The notes below the pieces were generated by a model. The model was not told the origin of the DNA. It did no database searches and saw nothing but the letters and a program-made list of their open reading frames with translations. A program made the translations under genes and the position numbers. From Bacteroidales bacterium (GTDB taxonomy: Bacteria > Bacteroidota > Bacteroidia > Bacteroidales > VadinHA17), in assembly GCA_049512815.1 (NCBI GenBank), contig JBEKWS010000008.1, forward strand, positions 7,013 to 71,012: DNA of 64,000 bases, given 5' to 3'. Positions within the stretch are counted from its first letter, which is position 1. Each line of letters starts with the position of its first letter. Positions 8,507-42,863 of the stretch are shown here, piece after piece.

Positions 8507-9508
8507 TTAATAATTATTGTCTTTCTTTCTTATCCGTAATATGATGTGAATGATTATGACACCGATTACAAGAACAAAAATAACCAAACTTATAAGGTTC
8601 AGATATTCATTTCTGTTTGCTCCAATAACATATGATGCATTTAAAATTATTCCGTTAAAGAATCCGTCGCGGCGTTGTTTTTTTGATTCAAATTTATAAA
8701 GTGAGGCCATAAGTATTGAGTTTTTCGAATGACATTCATTACAAAGTTTGATAGCTTCTTCTTTGGGTTTAATCAGATGCGATACAGGAACATTATTGTT
8801 GATTTGAGTGTGGCATTCGATGCATCGTACGTTTGCAAAATGTGAAGTCTGATTAGGCAGCCATTCATGCTTTTGAATAATATTTATCTCTTTTTTATCA
8901 CTCAGAAGCTGAAAACGGCTGAAGTCCGAGTGACAATTCAGACAGATAGCGTTGTCATAAGCAATAGTCTCCTTGAGATTATTATTGTTTCGGACCGAGA
9001 TCTTGTAAGTGTGAGGATTATGGCATTTCCAGCATGAGAATCCATCTCCCTCCATTTTAAAGTGAGTGCTCTTCTGATATTCAGCTTTTATCTCTTCAAA
9101 ATGATATTTCGCAAATTTCTCATCACCACTATGACAATCTATACAATTATACTTTTGCTCCATTCTCAGTTCTCCCGAATGAGGAAATTTTACATACTCT
9201 GCTGAATGACAGTCGGTACAACTGAAGCTCCTGTGATTTGATCTGTAAAATTCATTCTTATGTATAATCAATTCCGAACACATTTGGGCTTTGACCTGTC
9301 TTCCAAGAGTTGCATTAGAGTATTCATACTTCTCCTGTCCGTGACATTTAAAACAGCGGTTGTTATCAGCATCAAAAGGAGAGACAAAGGAAGTTGTGTC
9401 CAAAACTTTACCATTATCTGTTTTGAAACGGAAACTTCCGGCAGAAGGGAGAGAAATTAAATTGATAAAAGCATACAGGATAATTATCCGGAACATAAAT
9501 AATTTCAT
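8507..9508 (-). CDS. Heptahaem c-type cytochrome with a C-terminal membrane anchor
   Basis: Seven CxxCH sites (CFKCH, CTDCH, CIDCH, CWKCH, CLNCH, CIECH, CNECH). N-terminal signal and a C-terminal TM segment LISLVIFVLVIGVIIIHIIL. Confidence 0.85.
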   Translation of the reverse strand: MKLFMFRIIILYAFINLISLPSAGSFRFKTDNGKVLDTTSFVSPFDADNNRCFKCHGQEKYEYSNATLGRQVKAQMCSELIIHKNEFYRSNHRSFSCTDCHSAEYVKFPHSGELRMEQKYNCIDCHSGDEKFAKYHFEEIKAEYQKSTHFKMEGDGFSCWKCHNPHTYKISVRNNNNLKETIAYDNAICLNCHSDFSRFQLLSDKKEINIIQKHEWLPNQTSHFANVRCIECHTQINNNVPVSHLIKPKEEAIKLCNECHSKNSILMASLYKFESKKQRRDGFFNGIILNASYVIGANRNEYLNLISLVIFVLVIGVIIIHIILRIRKKDNNY

Positions 9509-12822: not shown

Positions 12823-12849
12823 CGTTTTCAGATAATTATTTGGACTAAT

Positions 12850-13644
12850 CTATAATTCAAGTGATTGTACAATTAGTTCTGCAATGTCAAGATTTTTGAT
12901 CACTTCTTCTCTGTTTTTATACTTAAGACCATCAGTCAGCATTGTCATACAAAACGGACAGGCAGTTGCAATTACCGTAGCATCAGTCTTAAGGGCATCT
13001 TCAGTTCTCTCTATAAAAATTTCCTTGTTGCCTTTTTCTGCCTCCTTAAACATTTGAGCACCACCGCCTCCACAACATAATGCGAAACTTTTGTTTCTGT
13101 GCATCTCAACCAGATTACCAGTCAGCTTTTTAAGTATAATTCGTGGTTCGTCATATATATCATTTGCTCTTCCGAGATAACATGGATCGTGATAAGTAAT
13201 TGATATATTATTTAATGAAACAGAATCAATTTTTAAATTACCTTCTTCGATATTCCTGTTAAGAAACTGAAGGTAGTTAATAACTTCGTATTCACCGCCG
13301 AGATCAGGATATTCGTTCTTAAAGATGTTGAAACAATGCGGGCAAATGGTAATGATCCTTTTCACATCGTACATTCTGAATATCTCAATTAACCGCAGCG
13401 CCTGCATCTGAAAAAGCATTTCGTTGCCGGCACGTCTTGCAGGATCACCGTTGCAAGTCTCTTCTTTCCCAAGAACAGCATAACTGACATTCAGATACAT
13501 GAGGATTTTCGCAAATGCCCTGACAACCTTTTTGTACCTGTCATCAAAAGCTCCTGCACAACCTACCCAGAATAGGTATTCAGGCTTTTCTCCTCGTGCA
13601 AAAAGGTCTGCCATAACAGGGACTTCAATTTTCCGGGTTTCCAT
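12850..13644 (-). CDS. (Fe-S)-binding protein with CCG domains (HdrD/GlpC-like C-terminal half of an ETF-linked oxidoreductase)
   Basis: Two cysteine-rich CCG-type motifs, including ALCCGGGG. Confidence 0.8.
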   Translation of the reverse strand: METRKIEVPVMADLFARGEKPEYLFWVGCAGAFDDRYKKVVRAFAKILMYLNVSYAVLGKEETCNGDPARRAGNEMLFQMQALRLIEIFRMYDVKRIITICPHCFNIFKNEYPDLGGEYEVINYLQFLNRNIEEGNLKIDSVSLNNISITYHDPCYLGRANDIYDEPRIILKKLTGNLVEMHRNKSFALCCGGGGAQMFKEAEKGNKEIFIERTEDALKTDATVIATACPFCMTMLTDGLKYKNREEVIKNLDIAELIVQSLEL

Positions 13645-34953: not shown

Positions 34954-35607
34954 AGCTCCGGAGGAGCGGTACATTAATAGTAAATTTAGTTATAAAAATA
35001 CCGAGCTCCGAAGGAGCGGGAAATTAATAGAAGAATTAATCATATCAATGTTGAGCTCCGGAGGAGCGATATCTTTAAATATCATCAAACAGATATTCGG
35101 TTTTATAGACTATATTATTATAATTAAGCAAATTAACATATTCCTCCTTGAAACTCTTCATCTTATGATGTTCTTCCTGGTTTTTAATATAATTGATTAT
35201 TGTATCCAATTCGGCAGGATTACACGTGAAGGCTCCGAATCCATGTTGCCATTCAAAACGTCCTTGAACCCATCTCTGTTCGTTGATAAAACGGGATGAG
35301 TTGGCTTTTATATCTCTGATCAGATCAGATAAAGCTATAGCGGGTTTAATGCTCAACAGAAGGTGAATATGATCGGGCATGCCATTGATTATCATTAGTT
35401 TCTGATCATTATTAGTAACGATACCTGTTATATATCTGTATAGATCATCTTTCCATCGCAGGGAGATGATGTTTTCTCTGCCTCTGACGGCAAAGACTGT
35501 ATGAATGAATAATTTTGTATATGTATCGGCCATGAGGTGTCGCTCCTCCGGAGCTCATAATATTTTATATATCAATAGTTCTATTAATATTTCGCTCCTC
35601 CGGAGCT
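34954..35607 (-). mobile_element. REPtron: a RAYT transposase gene flanked by inverted REP hairpin units
   Basis: Three forward units, (g)agctccg(g/a)aggagcg, at 34954-34968, 35003-35018 and 35053-35068. Two inverted units, cgctcctccggagct, at 35541-35556 and 35593-35607. Three of the five units carry the attaatag tail. Confidence 0.7.
35075..35533 (-). CDS. REP-associated tyrosine transposase (IS200/IS605 Y1 family, RAYT)
   Basis: MADTYTKLFIHTVFAVRGRE ... HIHLLLS (HUH motif) ... a C-terminal Tyr region. 152 aa. Confidence 0.8.
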   Translation of the reverse strand: MADTYTKLFIHTVFAVRGRENIISLRWKDDLYRYITGIVTNNDQKLMIINGMPDHIHLLLSIKPAIALSDLIRDIKANSSRFINEQRWVQGRFEWQHGFGAFTCNPAELDTIINYIKNQEEHHKMKSFKEEYVNLLNYNNIVYKTEYLFDDI

Positions 35608-36955
35608 AATTATAGTTCTCATCCGGTTTAACTAGTTTCCCTTCAAACGCCTGTTTAAGAATCGATTGCCGTAGCGATTCGGATTGTTGCAGGCAGTTTT
35701 CAATTGTCTCCTCCATCTTATCGCAGACTGAAAAACGGGTTTCGATCTCAGAAATAATATGTTGTTGTTCTTCAATTGAAGGAATCAACATTTCAATTTC
35801 CTTGAAATCTTTGATCCCGACTAAATTTGGCATTGCAGTTCCTTGTGATTGATCAAAGATTTTCTTTTGAAAAAAAGCTGTCCTAAAGTGCTGGATAAAG
35901 TATTTGTTTAGGATAATATTATTTCTTAGGCGAATTCTTAGCAACGCCTGATTAATAATGCCTGCTTTCGCATCTTTTGGGATTTCACATATTCTCCCCA
36001 GGGTTACTCCAGAGCAACTTATAATTAAATCATTAGGAATTACTTTGAAATTTTTTAATTCATTGTATTTATCCTCATTAATAAAATACTTTCCTCTGTA
36101 AGGATCATTATTTATTGCATTTCCCTGTTCATAAACCTTATAACCAACCGGTACAAAAAAATCTTTCTTGATAGCGCTCCCAAAGGGTCCTCGTCTTAAT
36201 CCCTCTTTATCGAGTGTGATGTCTTTCAATTTATAAGATTTCCATCCTACTGGCAATTCTTTTCCAGACAGGTCGTGGCCTTTCGTTAAAGTGAATCTAC
36301 CCTCAAAAGCCCACTTTAAAACTGACTGTCGATAGGTTTTCAATTGCAGCTTTACCATTCCGAGTTGCTGTTTACCTTTACCCAACTCGCTGAATAACTC
36401 TTCGATCTTGGATACTATTTGTTGTTGCTCCAAGAGAGGGGGAAGTGGAACATTTATCTTTATGTAGTCAGGGAATTTGAGATTTCTAAGATTATTACTT
36501 CCTCCCTGGTATTTAATTATTTCTCCTGTAGAGTAGAAAAATCGTAAATAATAGTTTAAAAACTTTGAATCATTTTCTTTTAAAGGTCTAATAACTCGTA
36601 AAAAATTGGTGCAAATCTTGGGTATATCTTTCTCAAAACTCAAAGTTGCTTTATCAATTAAGACAGTTCTACCAACAGGCTGCTCTGGACCGCCTCCAGA
36701 AATCTCAACAAGAATATCTCCAACTTCGAGTTGTCTGGTAATGATTGATGATTTTTTAATTTTCCGAAGAGAAGCTGTCATACCTTTTGATATTTCCCAG
36801 TTCCGTATTTCGGAACCTCTTATGCAATAAGCCAATTCATATCCAGGGTCAGAGTAAGTTATTTCTTTTCCCCAATCACCACCAATAGCTAGTTGAATCA
36901 ACTCCCTAAGACTTTTTATTTCCCAATGCTTTGGAATTGTATCTTTATCAATCAT
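35606..36955 (-). CDS. hsdS: Type I R-M specificity subunit. Start taken at the ATG at 36955, 4 nt after the upstream stop.
   Basis: Two target-recognition domains separated by conserved helices (LPPLLEQQQIVSKIEELF and IPSIEEQQHIISEIETRF; ...LKWAFEGRF and ...LKQAFEGKL). Confidence 0.85.
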   Translation of the reverse strand: MIDKDTIPKHWEIKSLRELIQLAIGGDWGKEITYSDPGYELAYCIRGSEIRNWEISKGMTASLRKIKKSSIITRQLEVGDILVEISGGGPEQPVGRTVLIDKATLSFEKDIPKICTNFLRVIRPLKENDSKFLNYYLRFFYSTGEIIKYQGGSNNLRNLKFPDYIKINVPLPPLLEQQQIVSKIEELFSELGKGKQQLGMVKLQLKTYRQSVLKWAFEGRFTLTKGHDLSGKELPVGWKSYKLKDITLDKEGLRRGPFGSAIKKDFFVPVGYKVYEQGNAINNDPYRGKYFINEDKYNELKNFKVIPNDLIISCSGVTLGRICEIPKDAKAGIINQALLRIRLRNNIILNKYFIQHFRTAFFQKKIFDQSQGTAMPNLVGIKDFKEIEMLIPSIEEQQHIISEIETRFSVCDKMEETIENCLQQSESLRQSILKQAFEGKLVKPDENYN

Positions 36956-36959
36956 TATA

Positions 36960-37685
36960 TTAAATTGAACTAACCTTTTGAGGTATTTCTGTGTATTGTT
37001 TCCCTTGAAGTAATTTTCCGTTTTTCTTTTTATTTGTGCCACCCCATTGTTTAAAATAAAAGGTAACATTTGCATTCCGACATTGATCTTTAATATCCAG
37101 GACCCATTCTTCTTTTACAGGGCGCGGTGTCCTGCCGCTTTCTCCACCAACAATAACCCAGTCAATATCTGCAAGATTCATACCGGAGATCTCAGTTAGT
37201 AATGGTTCGCAACTTAGGAATTTGATTTTTGCTCCGGTTTGTCTCAGTAAATCAATGCGTTTTGTAACGGTATTATCTTCAACCGTAACTCCCATCCAGA
37301 TATTATGTGTCCATTCAAGATAACCTTCTTTATCATAATATAAGAGCAGATCAGCTCGCTTTGTAAGTATTTGAAAAACATGGTGAGGGTTCTCCTTCAT
37401 TATCTTAAAGACATCTATTATATATTGTACAGGTATATCTTTATGGAAAAGATCGCTCATTGAGTTAACAAAGATCACTCTCGGTTTCTTCCATGTATAA
37501 GGTTCCTTTAGTGTTTCAGGATGCAAAGTCAGATTGAAACCATTCAGGTATTTCTCCTGTCCCATCGCCTGTAGCCTGCGGGTCATAACTTCGGCATAAC
37601 AGTTCTTACAACCGGCAGAAATCTTTGTACAACCTGTTATCGGATTCCAGGTCGATTCGGTCCATTCTATTTTGGTTTTAGCCAT
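36960..37685 (-). CDS. DUF5131 / phage Gp37-Gp68 family three-Cys-motif protein
   Basis: N-terminus MAKTKIEWTESTWNPITGCTKISAGCKNCYAE (a CX6CX2C triad) and C-terminal WVIVGGESG...FYFKQWGG. Family recognised from memory (PF07505). Confidence 0.75.
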   Translation of the reverse strand: MAKTKIEWTESTWNPITGCTKISAGCKNCYAEVMTRRLQAMGQEKYLNGFNLTLHPETLKEPYTWKKPRVIFVNSMSDLFHKDIPVQYIIDVFKIMKENPHHVFQILTKRADLLLYYDKEGYLEWTHNIWMGVTVEDNTVTKRIDLLRQTGAKIKFLSCEPLLTEISGMNLADIDWVIVGGESGRTPRPVKEEWVLDIKDQCRNANVTFYFKQWGGTNKKKNGKLLQGKQYTEIPQKVSSI

Positions 37686-37687
37686 AT

Positions 37688-38560
37688 TTAAAAATCTAAA
37701 GATAGTTGTTGTTTAACTCTCTGCTGAACCTTAGTAAAGTAATCCTCCCCTCTGGTATGCTTTGAATAGAAAGAAAGATAATATAACGGAAGATTTTTTT
37801 CATTTGACCTTATCTGGTGCATATGTTTTTCAGGCTTGTATCCAAGTTTACACATTTGCGACTGATACTGATCTGCGAGAAATTTTACGAAATCTTTTCT
37901 ATAAATACAACCATTCTGTTCAAATACCTCGCGCCAGCTTTCAAGCCCAAGATAATTTGCTATCCGCTGGTTTTCATCTTTCATATATTTCTCAAAATTC
38001 CTGTTAGCGTCCATGTGTAAAGCCTGTAGTATAAGAAAATCCATAAGGTTTTTACCGAGCTTTGCTATTGTAGAAAAACTTAGATCTAAAGAGAAAGGGT
38101 CAACGAAACAGAAAGGTAAAAGTGTGTTGCCTTTTTTGAAACCTGGAATTGATTTAAGAACAGCTTCTATGCTTTGATTGCTATCACCTAATAGTAGATC
38201 AAAGTTCAGATGATTATAATCTCTTTCAACTCTCTTTTTAAGAGCTTCAAAACGCACAGGGTCCTGTTCACATAAAATATATTTTGTGAAGGGATTAGGA
38301 ACTGACATTGCAATAAGAGCCGAAGATTTATAGACTATCTTAGTTTCCTTTATCCTTGAATATCCGGCTCCGGCAAAAAGATCAATATAAATAAGTTGAT
38401 CCCATTTTCTTTTCATACCTGAAGTAAAAATATCGCAATAACTTCCTGCAAGTTTGTATTTTTCAAGCGACCACGATCTTACTTCCGGAGTAAAAAGACC
38501 ATCATCAGGTACTTTCATCAATGGGTCAAAATGGATAATATTTTGACTGGGTATCCTCAT
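37688..38560 (-). CDS. tcmP: Three-Cys-motif partner protein TcmP-like (Rossmann / methyltransferase-like fold)
   Basis: EVRSWSLEKYKL..., then IDLFAGAG (SAM motif-I-like), ILCEQD and FCFVDPF. Always-adjacent partner of PF07505 as I recall TIGR04474. Confidence 0.65.
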   Translation of the reverse strand: MRIPSQNIIHFDPLMKVPDDGLFTPEVRSWSLEKYKLAGSYCDIFTSGMKRKWDQLIYIDLFAGAGYSRIKETKIVYKSSALIAMSVPNPFTKYILCEQDPVRFEALKKRVERDYNHLNFDLLLGDSNQSIEAVLKSIPGFKKGNTLLPFCFVDPFSLDLSFSTIAKLGKNLMDFLILQALHMDANRNFEKYMKDENQRIANYLGLESWREVFEQNGCIYRKDFVKFLADQYQSQMCKLGYKPEKHMHQIRSNEKNLPLYYLSFYSKHTRGEDYFTKVQQRVKQQLSLDF

Positions 38561-38561
38561 T

Positions 38562-39671
38562 TTAGTTTTTATATAAGTCGGAAATTATCTCCAGTACATT
38601 TTTATTATAAAGAGGTTGGTTTCCATAAGAGACCTTACCATCGTGAGCAAGCTTTCCCACAATAATAGCCGGATGAACTTCATATTTTTCAGCACACTCT
38701 TCAACCTTTGAAGTTGTCAGATAACCGATATAAGGTTCGAGAAACGAAATGATTTCATTGTGATTCAGATGCTTTGATGCAAGTTCATTTGCTTCATTCT
38801 CAAGTTTGTCGATTTGCCCGTTTTTCAGATCGTCAAGAATGAAAGGGGTTTTTTCATTCAGATGTTTTAAGATATGTGCTATTTCATGTGCAACCGTAAA
38901 CCAGAAATTATCGATCCTGTGATACCTGCCGGTATAGACAATTACAGGATTTTCACCAGAATAAAATGCTGCGCCATCGAGATATGTTTTTAACAGGTGA
39001 GGGAGAACGAAGAAGATTACCCCGACCATGTTTAGTTCCTTAATAAAGATGTTTATACCATCAGGTTTAATTGTATACGAATGAAGATCGTCATATAATG
39101 CTATAAGTTTTTCAAGATTATATTTGCTAACCTTTTTTTCGGCAGCAACAATGCAGGCTTTCTGATACCAGGTTAGAGCATAAGAGGCATTGAATTGATT
39201 AAATGCCTCTGACTTTCTGGTAAGGCATGGTAACTGTTTATCCAAAACTGAAAAATCAAGCTTTTTCCAACCCCAAAATTCTAAAACCTGATTTTTTAAG
39301 TCATCTAAATCTCTAAAAGGATTCAACCACCCCTTTTTTACCATATCATTAACAGGCATCCTTTCATAAATAGTGCCTTTTAAATCTGCTGCAATTTCTT
39401 TTTCCGATCTTTCCTGTTCAAGCCATAACCTGTAGCCGGTATCGATGTTAATCCAGTATTGTGCCGATGTATCAAAAACCTCACCCAGTAATCTTGCAAT
39501 TTCGAGAGTTATGGCCTGCTTGTTTTTGAGTATCTTGTTTAAATGTTTTTCTGATACTCCAATAACATCAGCCAGATCTTCCTGTATCCAATGACGTAAG
39601 TCCATCTGTTCCTGAATAAAATATCCCGCACCAAATTTCTTTGCTGCTCTTAGTTGTGTCGTCTGTACCAT
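38562..39671 (-). CDS. XRE-family HTH protein fused to an ImmA/IrrE (M78) metallopeptidase domain (HigA-like antitoxin or regulator)
   Basis: N-terminal HTH (LADVIGVSEKHLNKILKNKQ) and C-terminal HEIAH zinc motif. Confidence 0.8.
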   Translation of the reverse strand: MVQTTQLRAAKKFGAGYFIQEQMDLRHWIQEDLADVIGVSEKHLNKILKNKQAITLEIARLLGEVFDTSAQYWINIDTGYRLWLEQERSEKEIAADLKGTIYERMPVNDMVKKGWLNPFRDLDDLKNQVLEFWGWKKLDFSVLDKQLPCLTRKSEAFNQFNASYALTWYQKACIVAAEKKVSKYNLEKLIALYDDLHSYTIKPDGINIFIKELNMVGVIFFVLPHLLKTYLDGAAFYSGENPVIVYTGRYHRIDNFWFTVAHEIAHILKHLNEKTPFILDDLKNGQIDKLENEANELASKHLNHNEIISFLEPYIGYLTTSKVEECAEKYEVHPAIIVGKLAHDGKVSYGNQPLYNKNVLEIISDLYKN

Positions 39672-39683
39672 AATTCCTGATTG

Positions 39684-39995
39684 TTAATCTCCATAATGAG
39701 ATGAGATCACTACAATGATGAATTCTCCAACTGTATTATCGATGTTTTTCCATTCAATTTCCATTTCGAGTCTGTACTTTCCTGTAAGCCTCATTGAATA
39801 ACGCTTCTTAAATCCTCTTAGTTTTTCAAATTTGAGTCCACTGTCTTTCCAAAAATCATGGATACTGGTTGCTGATTCAATCTTCTGAACTGTTGCAAAG
39901 AATTTGTCAATTACGGTTTCAGGAAGCCTGAGTTTTTTTGAACTCCCTGTTTCGTAAAGTTTAATTAACTCTTTATCATTTATTTGGACATTCAA
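39684..39995 (-). CDS. HigB-like (RelE/ParE superfamily) toxin with a TTG start
   Basis: 103 aa with the pattern ...FEKLRGFKKRYSMRLTGKYRLEMEI...SSHYGD, typical of killer-protein HigB. Directly upstream of the HTH gene. Confidence 0.65.
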   Translation of the reverse strand: MNVQINDKELIKLYETGSSKKLRLPETVIDKFFATVQKIESATSIHDFWKDSGLKFEKLRGFKKRYSMRLTGKYRLEMEIEWKNIDNTVGEFIIVVISSHYGD

Positions 39996-40010
39996 TGATT
40001 AAATGTTTTA

Positions 40011-40045
40011 CAAATATACACCTAATTGGTTAAAATGCAAATATA
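40011..40045 (-). promoter_or_regulatory. Two exact TATATTTG (TAnnTTTG) -7 boxes upstream of the HigB-like gene
   Basis: Plus-strand caaatata at 40011-40018 and 40038-40045. Confidence 0.4.
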
Positions 40046-40048
40046 TAT

Positions 40049-40065
40049 TTTACCTGTCAGGTAAA
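40049..40065. promoter_or_regulatory. Perfect 8+1+8 palindrome tttacctg-t-caggtaaa, a candidate operator for the HTH protein
   Basis: Read directly. It lies just upstream of the -7 boxes in the 90-nt gap between hsdR and the toxin gene. Confidence 0.45.
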
Positions 40066-40085
40066 TATGTGATATAATATTCGAA

Positions 40086-42863
40086 TTATGCAGCTAGCAC
40101 CTCATTAAGTTCGGCTATGATTAATTCACAATCTTCTCCAAACAACTGCCACATCTTACCTTTTCCCCCGAATGCATTGAAAGGAGTATAATCGAGATCA
40201 TCATACTCAATATGAATGCTTGTGGCAATATGATCTTTTATCATTCTCAGCCAACTCATTTGTGATTCACTGAATTTAAGTGTCCCGGCTTGTTTTTTAA
40301 ATACCCACTCCCGGAAATTTTTATCAACTGTTTTGTCATAACTGGTAAGATCCTTGTCAATACCTGTTATTTTCCTGAGTAACGAGATAAGTGCGATCAT
40401 TTCATTTTTTGGTGATCCTGTTACTTTTTCAATCTGGCTGTATGCCTGCCAGATATTCATAGGAGCCAGAAGAGGTTTATCTGAAATCAGATGATCAACA
40501 AGTTCCTTCATCATTTTGAAAGTAATCTCACGTCTTCTGAGCGGTTGATTATAAAATATCTGCAACGCAACAATTTCATTCTTATGAGTTTCGATCCAGC
40601 TTTTGAAACTTTCTACCAGCTCCGCAGCATTTGATTTATTGTCCTTATCCCATCCTGCAAAAATGATCTTGTCGCGGTTAATGTCATCGATTACCTGTTC
40701 ATGTGCTTTTCTGACATTTTCAATGTAAGTATTGAGTTCACCAGTAAAGATCGAAGCGGCAGTTTCAATTAATTCATTATGTCTGCGGGTTAATTCATTC
40801 TCTTTATCAACTGGAGGAGAGGTGGCAAATTCCGATTCAACTTTTAACCTTACCCCTTCAATAATATCAGGATCATAAGCATTCAGAAGTTCTTTTATAG
40901 TCTGATTTATGGTTTTACCTTTGGCTTTCTCTGCAAAAAGATTTTTTTCTTTTTCTGTAATTTGTTTTTCAAGTCTTATTAGTCTGTTAGCAATCGATGA
41001 AAAAAGATCATCATCACGCACCCCCACTGCAATTGCGCCCAGCAAATCCTTCAGCGGAATTCCTGGTTTCTTTTCAAGAGGACGACTGTCGGTCTTCAGG
41101 CTTTTGGTAACACCAACAGAATCAACAATTACAAAATGGTCTTTCGTATATTTAGCTGAAGGGCTGACTTTCCTCAGATCATCTAGCGAGATTGTCCGGG
41201 TTCCCCGACCTTTCATCTGTTCAAAATAATTCCGGCTTTTCACATCTCGCATAAACAGAAGACATTCGAGAGGTTTCACATCGGTACCGGTAGCAATCAT
41301 ATCTACTGTAACTGCTATCCTCGGATGATAGGCGTTTCGAAATTGTGCAAGAACAGATTTGGTATCTTCTTCAGATTTATAAGTCAGCTTTTTACAAAAC
41401 CTGTTCTCTTCGGCAAACTCCTCCCTGACTATTTGAATAATGTCATCCGCGTGTGAATCAGTCTTTGCAAAAATCAGAGTTTTAGGCACTTCAAATTCGC
41501 CATTTTCTGAGAATCTCTCAGGAAACATGTCGGGAAGATGATCTTTAAAGTTTTTGATAATTGTTCTGATCTGATTAGGATTAACAACTTCATCGTCAAG
41601 TTTCTTATTTGAATAGACCAGATCCTCATCCAGCTGATCCCAACGCTTTTTTCGGGTCAGTTTTTCACGATGGTCAACAAATTCTCCTTTCCAGATTTTT
41701 GAGCCCTTCTTAGTAATATCAGTTTCAATGAGGAAAATATTATAGCCGACATTAACCCCATCGACAACAGCCTGCTGGTGAGTGTATTCACTTACAATAT
41801 TTTGTCTGAAATATCCGAATGTCCTGTTATCGGGTGTTGCAGTCAGTCCGACCTGGAAAGAATCGAAATATTCGAGAACCTGTTTCCAGAGGTTATAAAT
41901 ACTTCGGTGGCATTCATCAATAACCACAAAATCAAAAAACTCTACCGGCAGTTTTGCATTATAGACAACAGGAACCGGTTCGCGTTTTTGCCAACTAATT
42001 TCTCCCGGATTTGTTTCTTCAGCTTCTTCAGGAAGTTCCTCTCCTTTTAATATAGAGTATAATCGTTGTATAGTACTGATACAAACCTGGCTGTCAGAAG
42101 CTACGTAACTGCTTCTTAACCTCTGTACATTATAGAGTTCCGTGAACTTACGGTTGTCGTCTGTTGGCGTATAAGCCATAAATTCCTGTTCTGCCTGTTC
42201 ACCCAGGTTACGTGTGTCGACAAGGAACAGTATCCGCCTGGCGCCACTGAATTTAAGTAGCCTGTAAATTGAGGTTATGGCTGTATATGTCTTGCCTGAT
42301 CCGGTAGCCATCTGGATCAGAGCGCGAGGTCTGCTCTCTTTAAAAGATTTTTCCAGATTCCGGATCGCAACAATCTGGCAGTCTCTTAATCCTGTTGTTG
42401 TTAGTAACGGTAAGTCCAATAATCTTTTTCTGAGAGTCTTCTCTTTTTTATTCCACTCACGGAATGTTTCCGGTTTGTGAAAAGTAAAGGTTGGTCTCGA
42501 TCGCGGTTTTGGATCGCGGTAATCTGTAAAACGAGTTAGTTCACCTGTACTTTCATATACAAAAGGTAGAGGATCATTATTCAGATATTTGAGTTTGCTT
42601 TCCGCGTAATCCCTGGATTGTTCTTCATAATCTGTAAGACGGAAACCTTCCTCTACTTTTTTTGCTTCAATTATTCCTACAGGTTGTTTATCGACGAAAA
42701 GTAAATAGTCAGCAGGTCCGGTATCCGTTTGGTATTCCCTTATAGCTATACCGATCCCGGCATTCAGATTAATCTCTTTCTTATTCTGAATTGTCCAACC
42801 ACAGGCAATCAATTGCTTGTCAATATTATCACGAGCTATTTGTTCGGGGTTTTGGTTGGGCAT
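40086..42863 (-). CDS. hsdR: Type I restriction endonuclease subunit R (EcoEI-like, 925 aa)
   Basis: N-terminal nuclease domain, helicase motif I MATGSGKT, motif II DECHR, and a long C-terminal helical domain. Confidence 0.9.
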   Translation of the reverse strand: MPNQNPEQIARDNIDKQLIACGWTIQNKKEINLNAGIGIAIREYQTDTGPADYLLFVDKQPVGIIEAKKVEEGFRLTDYEEQSRDYAESKLKYLNNDPLPFVYESTGELTRFTDYRDPKPRSRPTFTFHKPETFREWNKKEKTLRKRLLDLPLLTTTGLRDCQIVAIRNLEKSFKESRPRALIQMATGSGKTYTAITSIYRLLKFSGARRILFLVDTRNLGEQAEQEFMAYTPTDDNRKFTELYNVQRLRSSYVASDSQVCISTIQRLYSILKGEELPEEAEETNPGEISWQKREPVPVVYNAKLPVEFFDFVVIDECHRSIYNLWKQVLEYFDSFQVGLTATPDNRTFGYFRQNIVSEYTHQQAVVDGVNVGYNIFLIETDITKKGSKIWKGEFVDHREKLTRKKRWDQLDEDLVYSNKKLDDEVVNPNQIRTIIKNFKDHLPDMFPERFSENGEFEVPKTLIFAKTDSHADDIIQIVREEFAEENRFCKKLTYKSEEDTKSVLAQFRNAYHPRIAVTVDMIATGTDVKPLECLLFMRDVKSRNYFEQMKGRGTRTISLDDLRKVSPSAKYTKDHFVIVDSVGVTKSLKTDSRPLEKKPGIPLKDLLGAIAVGVRDDDLFSSIANRLIRLEKQITEKEKNLFAEKAKGKTINQTIKELLNAYDPDIIEGVRLKVESEFATSPPVDKENELTRRHNELIETAASIFTGELNTYIENVRKAHEQVIDDINRDKIIFAGWDKDNKSNAAELVESFKSWIETHKNEIVALQIFYNQPLRRREITFKMMKELVDHLISDKPLLAPMNIWQAYSQIEKVTGSPKNEMIALISLLRKITGIDKDLTSYDKTVDKNFREWVFKKQAGTLKFSESQMSWLRMIKDHIATSIHIEYDDLDYTPFNAFGGKGKMWQLFGEDCELIIAELNEVLAA

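Follow-up and report, generated by a model that had tools for sequence, protein, structure and literature searches.

The TcmP-DUF5131 gene pair between hsdR and hsdS of a Bacteroidales Type I restriction-modification operon, and its restriction-modification, phage and SOS contexts in other clades

The window analysed here is a stretch of 64,000 nt of Bacteroidales (VadinHA17) DNA on contig JBEKWS010000008.1, and all positions are counted from its first letter. A Type I restriction-modification (R-M) operon on its minus strand was found to contain, between hsdR and hsdS, an adjacent pair of genes coding for TcmP, a protein with a predicted S-adenosylmethionine (SAM) methyltransferase fold, and for DUF5131 (Gp37/Gp68), a predicted member of the radical-SAM superfamily. 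The pair was found to be autonomous across phyla, to be a stable passenger between hsdR and hsdS in this Bacteroidales clade, where the embedding is a clade trait, and to be associated with the SOS response in other clades. It is possible, and is our tentative preference, that the pair is an autonomous, horizontally mobile, DNA-directed two-enzyme cassette which rides on the R-M operon as an extra layer of immunity and not as a part of its self-marking. The arrangement has already been catalogued, as PDC-M41/M30 and as the TIGR04474-PF07505 pair, and what is added here is the dissection of the locus into three modules, the embedding as a clade trait, an empty-site control, the RlmJ-like fold of TcmP and the link to LexA and the SOS response.

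The pairing was followed in 80 species genomes with a conserved DUF5131 (54-76% identity), from phyla which include Bacteroidota, Chloroflexota, Planctomycetota, Acidobacteriota, Ignavibacteria and Actinomycetota. A TcmP-family gene was found to adjoin DUF5131 in 71 of the 80, directly upstream and on the same strand in 65, and the nine genomes without an adjacent TcmP include contig edges; among TcmP-seeded loci, DUF5131 followed TcmP in 63 of 63. The flanks were otherwise mixed, no third family accounting for more than 5 of the ~75 flanking genes. By one narrow search pattern the pair was present in at least 597 of 185,579 species genomes, and it was also present in hundreds of viral contigs. 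The first-pass annotation, made from the sequence of the window, had described the two families as obligate neighbours, which holds as a near-obligate association and fails for the longer phage-type DUF5131 copies, which stand alone. DUF5131 was found to be conserved at the identity given above and TcmP to be fast-diverging (28-48% identity), with variable length and orientation, a pattern in keeping with a constant catalytic subunit whose partner, for targeting or sensing, evolves fast. The short form of TcmP contained ~280-300 aa and the long form ~370-430 aa (L021, 8877-10001, and ~20 other loci), placed upstream of, downstream of or convergent with DUF5131, and the PADLOC database divides these forms into PDC-M41 and PDC-M30, though both pass one NCBIfam model.

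The window pair was found to match PDC-M41, with PDC-M41A (1.3e-20) and PDC-M41B (2e-121) adjacent on the same strand, whereas PDC-M30A is the long TcmP form (~372 aa) and PDC-M30B is the same DUF5131 family. The PDC sets were derived from cassettes embedded in BREX, DISARM and Type I R-M loci by 'guilt-by-embedding' (Payne et al. 2024, bioRxiv 10.1101/2024.01.29.577857), and the supplement of that study gives CAS_00149 as PDC-M41 and CAS_00125 as PDC-M30, both with FAM_00989. They are listed there as candidates, and a later preprint leaves them out as unvalidated. No functional study of the DUF5131 or TcmP family was found in the searchable literature, in agreement with the first-pass statement that no experimentally assigned function was known.

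The embedding in Type I R-M, described in the first-pass annotation as hard-wired, was found to hold for the Bacteroidota clade of the window and not for the family as a whole. Type I genes were located within 10 kb of the pair in 4 of the 80 cross-phyla loci, which is above the 1% background (P ~0.009) but is not the rule. A metagenome scan seeded with the window-type TcmP gave 80 loci, which were clustered at 95% identity. Adjacent Type I genes were present in 21 of the 32 informative clusters with TcmP of at least 59% identity (66%, a value which describes the clade and is no unbiased frequency, because the metagenome sample was ranked by similarity to the window) and in 2 of 13 clusters at 38-52% TcmP identity. 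Nearly all of the 21 embedded clusters were ordered hsdR-(higB-HTH/M78)-tcmP-DUF5131-hsdS...hsdM, where HTH/M78 denotes a helix-turn-helix (HTH) domain fused to an M78 peptidase. In the neighbour-joining tree of TcmP the embedded operons were found to form the deep branches of the clade, and the lineages of other contexts were nested among them. In diverged relatives the distance from the hsdR stop to the tcmP start was 1 nt in most operons without HigB/HTH-M78. Where hsdS lies downstream of the pair (21 loci), it was found in 14 loci to overlap DUF5131 by up to 4 nt or to follow the DUF5131 stop by up to 19 nt.

Homologues of the window hsdR at 72-95% identity were found to be common and include an empty site. 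At 72% identity HsdR homologues occur in the order RadC-hsdR-hsdS-hsdM-HNH with nothing embedded, and at 75% identity the pair is again present, together with a uracil-DNA glycosylase gene between hsdS and hsdM. The pair is dispensable for this R-M family, and its reading as an integral component of Type I R-M was rejected because the same HsdR family (72% identity) was found without it.

Outside Type I operons, close relatives with TcmP of 67-73% identity were found beside a split Type IIG-like R-M system and GmrSD. Another close relative was located beside a UvrD/PDDEXK helicase-nuclease, an N6_N4 methylase and a ResIII/TnsA-like protein, with an HTH/M78 gene downstream, and others beside a gasdermin protease and an AAA_15/21 ATPase, a SNF2 helicase island, an integrase or IS110 copies. 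In the viral database IMG/VR conserved DUF5131 was found to be common, with an adjacent TcmP in 59 of the 79 top loci and an S24 repressor gene within 6 kb in 10 of them; the TcmP subfamily of the window was not detected there in a scan with close TcmP patterns, and other TcmP forms were present. In Gordonia phage Fairfaxidum (L090, MK814757.1, 3983-5924) gp42, a DUF5131 protein 50% identical to that of the window, and gp43 are encoded between the integrase and the immunity repressor, and gp43, annotated 'methyltransferase', is a long-form TcmP (TIGR04474, 109 bits) convergent with gp42. This position is typical of lysogen-expressed genes. Longer and more divergent DUF5131 genes, such as Sbash gp69, were found alone in replication/recombination modules of lytic-cycle genes. 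In Sinorhizobium meliloti (SMa2243/SMa2245) the TcmP gene lies two locus tags from the gene of the Hna defence helicase, and both are upregulated in a nolR+ strain (PMC12445080).

Both proteins of the window were found to match the families named in the first-pass annotation above the curated cut-offs of the respective hidden Markov models. TcmP matched TIGR04474 with E=2.4e-35 and 122.7 bits (cut-off 53), a model which the long, phage and R-M-embedded forms also pass (109-148 bits). DUF5131 matched PF07505 with E=1e-96 and 323.6 bits (cut-off 28.9), its residues 3-235 spanning positions 1-243 of the 243 of the model, and it also matched TIGR04471, the NCBIfam 'radical SAM mobile pair protein A' (5e-25).

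The AlphaFold2 model of TcmP (predicted local distance difference test, pLDDT, 83) was compared with the PDB by Foldseek, and the top matches were E. coli RlmJ (E=2e-6, template-modelling (TM) score 0.47-0.49). There were 78 PDB matches at E<=1e-3, and nearly all of the 50 listed were class I SAM methyltransferases, TYW2 among them. Across 99 TcmP sequences (28-48% identity) only D154 of the FVDPF motif was invariant, with P155, D60, G66, D126, N128 and L61 conserved at 90% or more. Motif I contained conserved D60-L-F-A-G-A-G66, the acidic residue after strand 2 was found in conserved C97-E98, and motif IV contained D154-P155-F/Y156, the second proline of (D/N/S)PP(Y/F/W) being missing. By hand the motifs of RlmJ and TcmP were found to be colinear (YLDTHAGAG/YIDLFAGAG, GSPLIA/SPLLAL, TEL/CEQD, ADG/GDSN and IDPPYE/VDPFSL). 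Single-sequence (phmmer) and TcmP-profile searches of PDB chains gave nothing meaningful, and TcmP had no Pfam match and no PHROGs family. TcmP as a member of the RlmJ/DUF519 family proper was rejected, since no significant sequence homology was found (phmmer, profile, Pfam, hhalign probability 6%). By its model, TcmP is predicted to have the class I SAM-methyltransferase fold in an RlmJ-like form, in which the SAM loop is intact and motif IV, of the amino-methyltransferase type, is shortened, membership of the RlmJ family not being demonstrable. The SAM-binding motif I, acidic post-I residue and degenerate motif IV proposed in the first pass are consistent with this modelled fold, motif IV as a shortened DPP(Y/F)-type which is colinear by hand alignment only.

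DUF5131 was placed on its sequence in the radical-SAM superfamily. It is known as a subgroup of RadicalSAM.org/SFLD Megacluster-5-2 with CX6CX2C as its cluster-motif variant, and the same megacluster contains spore photoproduct lyase and the MJ0683-like 'DNA repair photolyase' proteins (PMC9477430). The cysteine triad within GCTKISAGCKNCY, which had been likened in the first pass to an Fe-S or radical-SAM-type site, is this recognised variant, and C19, C26 and C29 were found to be unchanged in 53 close and 24 diverse DUF5131 homologues, phage copies included. The NPxxGC...GCxxCYA loop was found to align with the CX3CX2C loop of a PA0069-family (SplB-like) radical-SAM enzyme (hhalign E=1e-4), with a three-residue insertion in DUF5131.

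On the preferred reading, DUF5131 would bind a [4Fe-4S] cluster through C19, C26 and C29 and would cleave SAM to the 5'-deoxyadenosyl radical, a putative chemistry for a protein of assigned family. TcmP, from its modelled fold and motifs, would bind SAM and present a flipped-out base in the D-P-F/Y pocket, and the pair would jointly introduce or undo a covalent alteration of a base in nucleic acid, DNA being the most probable target. DNA is the likely substrate because the neighbourhoods are almost exclusively DNA-related and DUF5131 is akin to spore-photoproduct-lyase-type DNA enzymes; the SOS contexts, the neighbours which code for R-M or DNA methylases and the replication modules of phages all indicate the same. 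Methylation by HsdM/HsdS would not be needed for the action of the cassette, which would add a second layer of DNA-directed immunity to the R-M operon.

In the window the pair lies in a co-directional minus-strand string of genes (42863-33424) in the order hsdR, HigB-like, HTH/M78, tcmP, DUF5131, hsdS, Y1 transposase and hsdM (Table 1). The HTH/M78 stop codon TAA (38564-38562) was found to be followed after 1 nt by the TcmP ATG (38560), the TcmP stop TAA (37690-37688) after 2 nt by the DUF5131 ATG (37685) and the DUF5131 stop TAA (36962-36960) after 4 nt by the hsdS ATG (36955). The four tightly spaced genes, with gaps of at most 4 nt, and their peptide motifs are thus as the first-pass annotation had them, and its gene string lacked the HigB-like gene and the Y1 transposase gene. 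An alternative longer open reading frame (ORF) of hsdS starts at 37075, and the gene calls of identical contigs give the 449-aa form. No terminator-like hairpin was found on the coding strand between hsdR and hsdS, and the pair is predicted to be co-transcribed with the Type I R-M operon because of this and of the gaps of 1-4 nt. A sigma-70 promoter scan gave fewer matches than shuffled sequence, the scan being ill-suited to Bacteroidota promoters. The Type I R-M system was found to be intact, with hsdR, hsdM and hsdS of full length and with the expected domains. The locus is present on three public contigs, and its DUF5131 is 100% identical to a protein of a Bacteroidales metagenome-assembled genome (MAG).

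Table 1. Features of the Type I R-M operon and of the embedded genes in the window
Feature	Positions	Strand	Evidence
hsdR, restriction subunit of the Type I system (925 aa, EcoEI_R_C type), heading the operon	40086..42863	-	Pfam ResIII 9e-40, EcoEI_R_C 3e-39, HSDR_N; PADLOC REase_I
Small HigB-like protein, 103 aa, counterpart of component A of PD-lambda-2	39684..39995	-	Pfam HigB-like_toxin 1.4e-5, just under gathering score; phrog_3066 'toxin of TA system' 3e-7
Fusion of Xre-HTH and M78 (ImmA/IrrE) peptidase, 369 aa, similar to component B of PD-lambda-2	38562..39671	-	Pfam HTH_3 1e-8, Peptidase_M78 2e-9; PADLOC PD-Lambda-2_B 2.9e-47, weak capP/capH matches
TcmP, 290 aa, predicted RlmJ-like class I SAM-methyltransferase-fold partner	37688..38560	-	TIGR04474 2.4e-35; PADLOC PDC-M41A 1.3e-20; AlphaFold2 pLDDT 83; Foldseek RlmJ
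TcmP motif I IDLFAGAG (putative SAM-binding glycine loop)	38363..38386	-	Sequence reading; aligns to RlmJ YLDTHAGAG
TcmP ILCEQD (acidic post-I residue)	38261-38278	-	Sequence reading
TcmP motif IV-like FVDPF (D154-P155-F156)	38093..38107	-	D154 invariant in 99 TcmPs; colinear with RlmJ IDPPYE
DUF5131 / Gp37-Gp68 protein, 241 aa, predicted radical-SAM superfamily, PDC-M41B / PDC-M30B	36960..37685	-	PF07505 1e-96; TIGR04471 5e-25; PDC-M41B 2e-121
DUF5131 CX6CX2C motif GCTKISAGCKNCY (C19, C26, C29), predicted [4Fe-4S] ligands	37599..37631	-	Invariant in alignments
hsdS, Type I specificity subunit, 449 aa	35606..36955	-	Pfam Methylase_S, two stretches; PADLOC Specificity_I 4e-65
Y1 (IS200-like) transposase gene in the hsdS/hsdM slot	35075..35533	-	Pfam Y1_Tnp 4e-26; NF033573 3e-20
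hsdM, Type I N6-methyladenine (m6A) methyltransferase, 494 aa	33424..34908	-	Pfam N6_Mtase 3e-70, HsdM_N; PADLOC MTase_I 3e-191

The hsdS/hsdM junction was found to be a second embedding slot of this R-M family. It is occupied in the window by the Y1 transposase gene, in L266 by the gene of the uracil-DNA-glycosylase family (12844-13557) and in L093 by two small ORFs of no known family (8555-9359). Homologues of the Y1 transposase with 62% and 52% identity were located in the same slot of two operons (L223, 7162-7659, and L208, 7875-8333, respectively), of which HsdR is 68% and HsdM 78% identical to those of the window. The Y1 gene is no fresh insertion; it seems to have diverged together with the operon and may code for a domesticated or long-resident transposase. 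A terminator-like GC hairpin, GCTCCTTCGGAGC, with a T-rich tail was found at 35005-35017 (minus) after the Y1 gene and before hsdM, and hsdM may need its own promoter because of this hairpin, which may alternatively be an end structure of the IS200 type. The embedded genes (window 36500-41000) were found to contain 35-36% G+C, slightly below hsdM, the 5' part of hsdR and the neighbouring genes (38-41%).

The HigB-like and HTH/M78 genes upstream of the pair are predicted to form a separate PD-lambda-2-like toxin-antitoxin cassette. The HigB-like gene was always paired with the HTH/M78 gene in relatives. Of the 21 embedded clusters 8 had these two genes, at scattered places in the TcmP tree, and the two were near the pair in 0 of 160 loci of the wider survey. 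Because of these two counts the hsdR/hsdS slot is read as holding two stacked, independent two-gene modules, and a general role of HigB and HTH/M78 as regulators of the pair was rejected on the 0 of 160. The four-gene unit of the first-pass annotation was a composite, the HTH-ImmA gene belonging with the HigB-like gene to a cassette which occurs only in some of the embedded operons. In E. coli PD-lambda-2 contains a HigB-like protein A, an Xre-peptidase fusion B and a third protein C (PMC9519451), B being toxic, A neutralising B and C being required for defence (PMC9519451; Vassallo et al. 2022). No component C-like gene was found at the window locus and component A had no PADLOC match, and the cassette was not classed as a full PD-lambda-2 system (B at 2.9e-47, A as a sub-threshold Pfam HigB-like match only, no C).

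Several points, together with the SOS contexts and the RNA links given below, weigh against the preferred reading of the pair as an immune cassette. Its anti-phage activity is argued from guilt by association alone, and the DNA-damage contexts of a substantial set of relatives fit repair at least as well as immunity; defence is not the sole reading because of these SOS contexts. The 21 of 32 clusters carry the sampling limit stated above, and the long-conserved hsdR/hsdS position with the 1-nt coupling to hsdR could mean a functional coupling to the R-M complex and not hitch-hiking. On the structural side, hhalign of the TcmP profile with RlmJ (probability 6%) aligned motif I alone, and the RlmJ likeness therefore rests on the fold (TM ~0.49) and the hand-aligned motifs. 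The AlphaFold2 model of DUF5131 was poor (pLDDT 63, from 53 close homologues), and Foldseek with this model gave only non-significant matches, to TIM barrels (radical-SAM enzymes have a partial TIM-barrel fold) and to spore photoproduct lyase at E=0.16, so that the model was given no weight as evidence.

A role in DNA-damage repair or tolerance is the alternative which survives best, and it is judged rather unlikely. DUF5131 would here reverse or process a base lesion (such as an alkyl adduct, a crosslink or photoproduct-like damage), TcmP would recognise and flip it, and the presence in R-M and defence loci would be secondary, either as a mobile repair cassette in a permissive slot or as mitigation of self-damage. 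In seven Chitinophagaceae genomes of several genera (L011, L015, L025, L030, L035, L042 and L045) the pair was found in the arrangement umuC<-umuD / LigT-like->PA0069-family (SplB-like) radical SAM->TcmP->DUF5131. The divergent umuD/LigT-like intergenic region was found to contain an exact CTAA-N5-TTAG and a near-repeat in 7 of 7 of these loci, and the seven boxes are 7 of just 8 CTAA-N5-TTAG matches in 141 kb. CTAA-N5-TTAG is the LexA-binding motif of Bacteroidetes, in which SplB is SOS-regulated (Sánchez-Osuna et al., PMC8565304). In an unrelated MAG (L074, 3304-13045) one strand was found to carry, closely packed, genes for LexA, an Fpg/Nei glycosylase, a Y-family polymerase, DUF72, TcmP, DUF5131 and a MrfA-like (DEAD + MZB) helicase. 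A relative with 72% TcmP identity (L006) contained a LexA-like gene, a 67-aa ORF, TcmP, DUF5131 and DUF72, followed further on by PolB, and L190 likewise read LexA-like-TcmP-DUF5131-DUF72-...-PolB. The recurrent flanks of the pair included Ada, AP_endonuc_2, DUF72, DUF4130, DprA, UvrD and RadC, and the megacluster shared with spore photoproduct lyase also argues for repair. The first-pass annotation was right about the R-M embedding of the neighbourhood and missed this recurrent SOS and DNA-repair context of the relatives.

Against a role in repair, the pair is patchy, horizontally transferred and often located in prophages, and a fast TcmP with a conserved DUF5131 is a pattern commoner in conflict systems. 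R-M and defence genes are the dominant neighbours in the clade of the window, the window operon contains no CTAA-N5-TTAG box, and an intact SAM-binding methylase fold is no obvious requirement of repair. The Chitinophagaceae loci count as about one event because they are phylogenetically related, and the L006 cluster, next to a tRNA-Met gene, is itself a possible mobile island. This tRNA-Met gene (L006, 6877-6950) was located directly upstream of the LexA-like...PolB cluster, which, instead of being an SOS operon of the host, may be an element (possibly of the pipolin kind) that has integrated there. LexA control of the window operon was rejected, as no CTAA-N5-TTAG was found and the GGA-N5-TCC matches were only intragenic. 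Ada beside the pair was found in a single lineage and in convergent orientation, and was given little weight.

A guard in the style of PrrC is improbable. HsdRMS would keep the pair silent, or would be sensed by it, and the pair would fire when a phage anti-restriction protein disables HsdRMS, so as to abort the infection through damage to, or modification of, nucleic acid. The hsdR/hsdS position, which is kept while TcmP identity ranges over 59-95%, and the 1-nt coupling to hsdR are consistent with such a guard, as are the PD-lambda-2-like abortive-infection cassette of toxin-antitoxin type attracted to the same slot and the precedent of PrrC itself, which is found almost only inside Type I R-M. 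The close relatives at 67-73% TcmP identity and most of the wider family, however, were found without Type I genes, and no domain is common to the pair and to PrrC or RloC.

An RNA-directed activity is distinctly improbable. TcmP would methylate rRNA or tRNA and DUF5131 would add a radical-SAM step, as in RlmN/Cfr or in TYW1 with TYW2, and the altered translation apparatus would withstand ribotoxins or phage takeover. By structure TcmP is closest to the rRNA m6A methylase RlmJ and to the tRNA enzyme TYW2, a LigT-like RNA 2',3'-cyclic phosphodiesterase heads the Chitinophagaceae operon, and a gene for a HigB-like, ribonuclease-type toxin is located two genes upstream of the pair in the window. 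RNA is also a possible substrate because TcmP resembles an rRNA methylase and the LigT-like RNA phosphoesterase shares one SOS operon with the pair. The neighbourhoods, however, were found to be overwhelmingly DNA-related (R-M, DNA methylases, translesion polymerases, glycosylases, helicases and phage replication modules), the nearest radical-SAM relatives of DUF5131 act on DNA, and the association with HigB is clade-specific.

An extension of Type I self-marking, proposed in the first pass, in which the pair would write an extra DNA mark read by the R-M system as 'self', is very improbable: co-transcription with translational-coupling-like spacing to hsdR and hsdS and the amino-methyltransferase-type D-P-F motif of TcmP speak for it, but it finds no support because only 4 of 80 loci lie near Type I genes and the same R-M family, with an empty hsdR/hsdS junction, works without the pair, while HsdM is intact and sufficient for Type I marking, HsdS is free to vary (33-35% identity) as the pair persists, TcmP has no recognisable target-recognition domain or similarity to HsdM beyond the general fold, and most members of the pair have no restriction partner.

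A more speculative reading, which is a long shot, takes the pair for an 'eraser/rewriter' of DNA bases with radical-SAM chemistry, which would parallel AlkB-type dealkylation without the need for oxygen. The adenine-methylase-like pocket of TcmP would flip an N-alkylated or hypermodified base, and DUF5131 would remove or convert the adduct by hydrogen abstraction. If true, one chemistry would cover both lifestyles, as alkyl or adduct repair in LexA-controlled operons and, in R-M and defence loci, as the stripping of protective base modifications of phages, by which the DNA is re-exposed to the co-transcribed Type I enzyme.

The preferred reading of the pair as a DNA-directed immune cassette and its alternatives bear on a wider question, as DUF5131 is among the more widespread radical-SAM subgroups without a known reaction. 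The pair is tractable for new nucleic-acid chemistry, with a constant RlmJ-like partner, one clade long locked at hsdR/hsdS and others LexA-controlled beside translesion polymerases. It also tests whether 'guilt-by-embedding' candidates are immune genes or DNA-repair passengers. For annotation, the locus separates into three stacked modules, which are Type I R-M, the PD-lambda-2-like toxin-antitoxin pair and TcmP-DUF5131.

Among known systems, PDC-M41 and PDC-M30 were found to contain both families, TcmP first and DUF5131 second, within a Type I R-M operon, and the window DUF5131 matches PDC-M41B and PDC-M30B alike at 2e-121. The window TcmP differs in belonging to a Bacteroidota subfamily distant from the PADLOC seed models (72 bits, where L010 reaches 359 bits). 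As to the TIGR04474-PF07505 pair, the window proteins score above both cut-offs and their genes are adjacent, which is plain membership of families defined by co-occurrence and not by function. The window cassette upstream of the pair resembles PD-lambda-2 in the HigB-like gene followed by the Xre-HTH/peptidase fusion (B match 2.9e-47), whereas the third component, required for defence in E. coli, is missing in the window.

RlmJ, the E. coli 23S rRNA m6A2030 methyltransferase (DUF519), was the best structural match of TcmP, with a colinear N-terminal Lys-containing helix and colinear motifs, whereas RlmJ acts alone on rRNA as a housekeeping enzyme and TcmP is mobile, is always found with a radical-SAM partner and has a motif IV without the second proline. 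The SplB-like enzymes (COG1533; PA0069/Rv2578c family) have the megacluster and the NPxxGC...GCxxCYA loop in common with DUF5131, and in Chitinophagaceae the pair shares its operon with a PA0069-family gene. Compared with spore photoproduct lyase/SplB, DUF5131 is far smaller (~240 aa), contains CX6CX2C and not CX3CX2C, needs the TcmP partner and has no known lyase activity. The anticodon nucleases PrrC and RloC resemble the pair as non-R-M genes stably nested in, and co-transcribed with, a Type I operon; PrrC, however, is almost exclusive to Type I loci, whereas the TcmP-DUF5131 pair is found mostly elsewhere, and the two have no domains in common.

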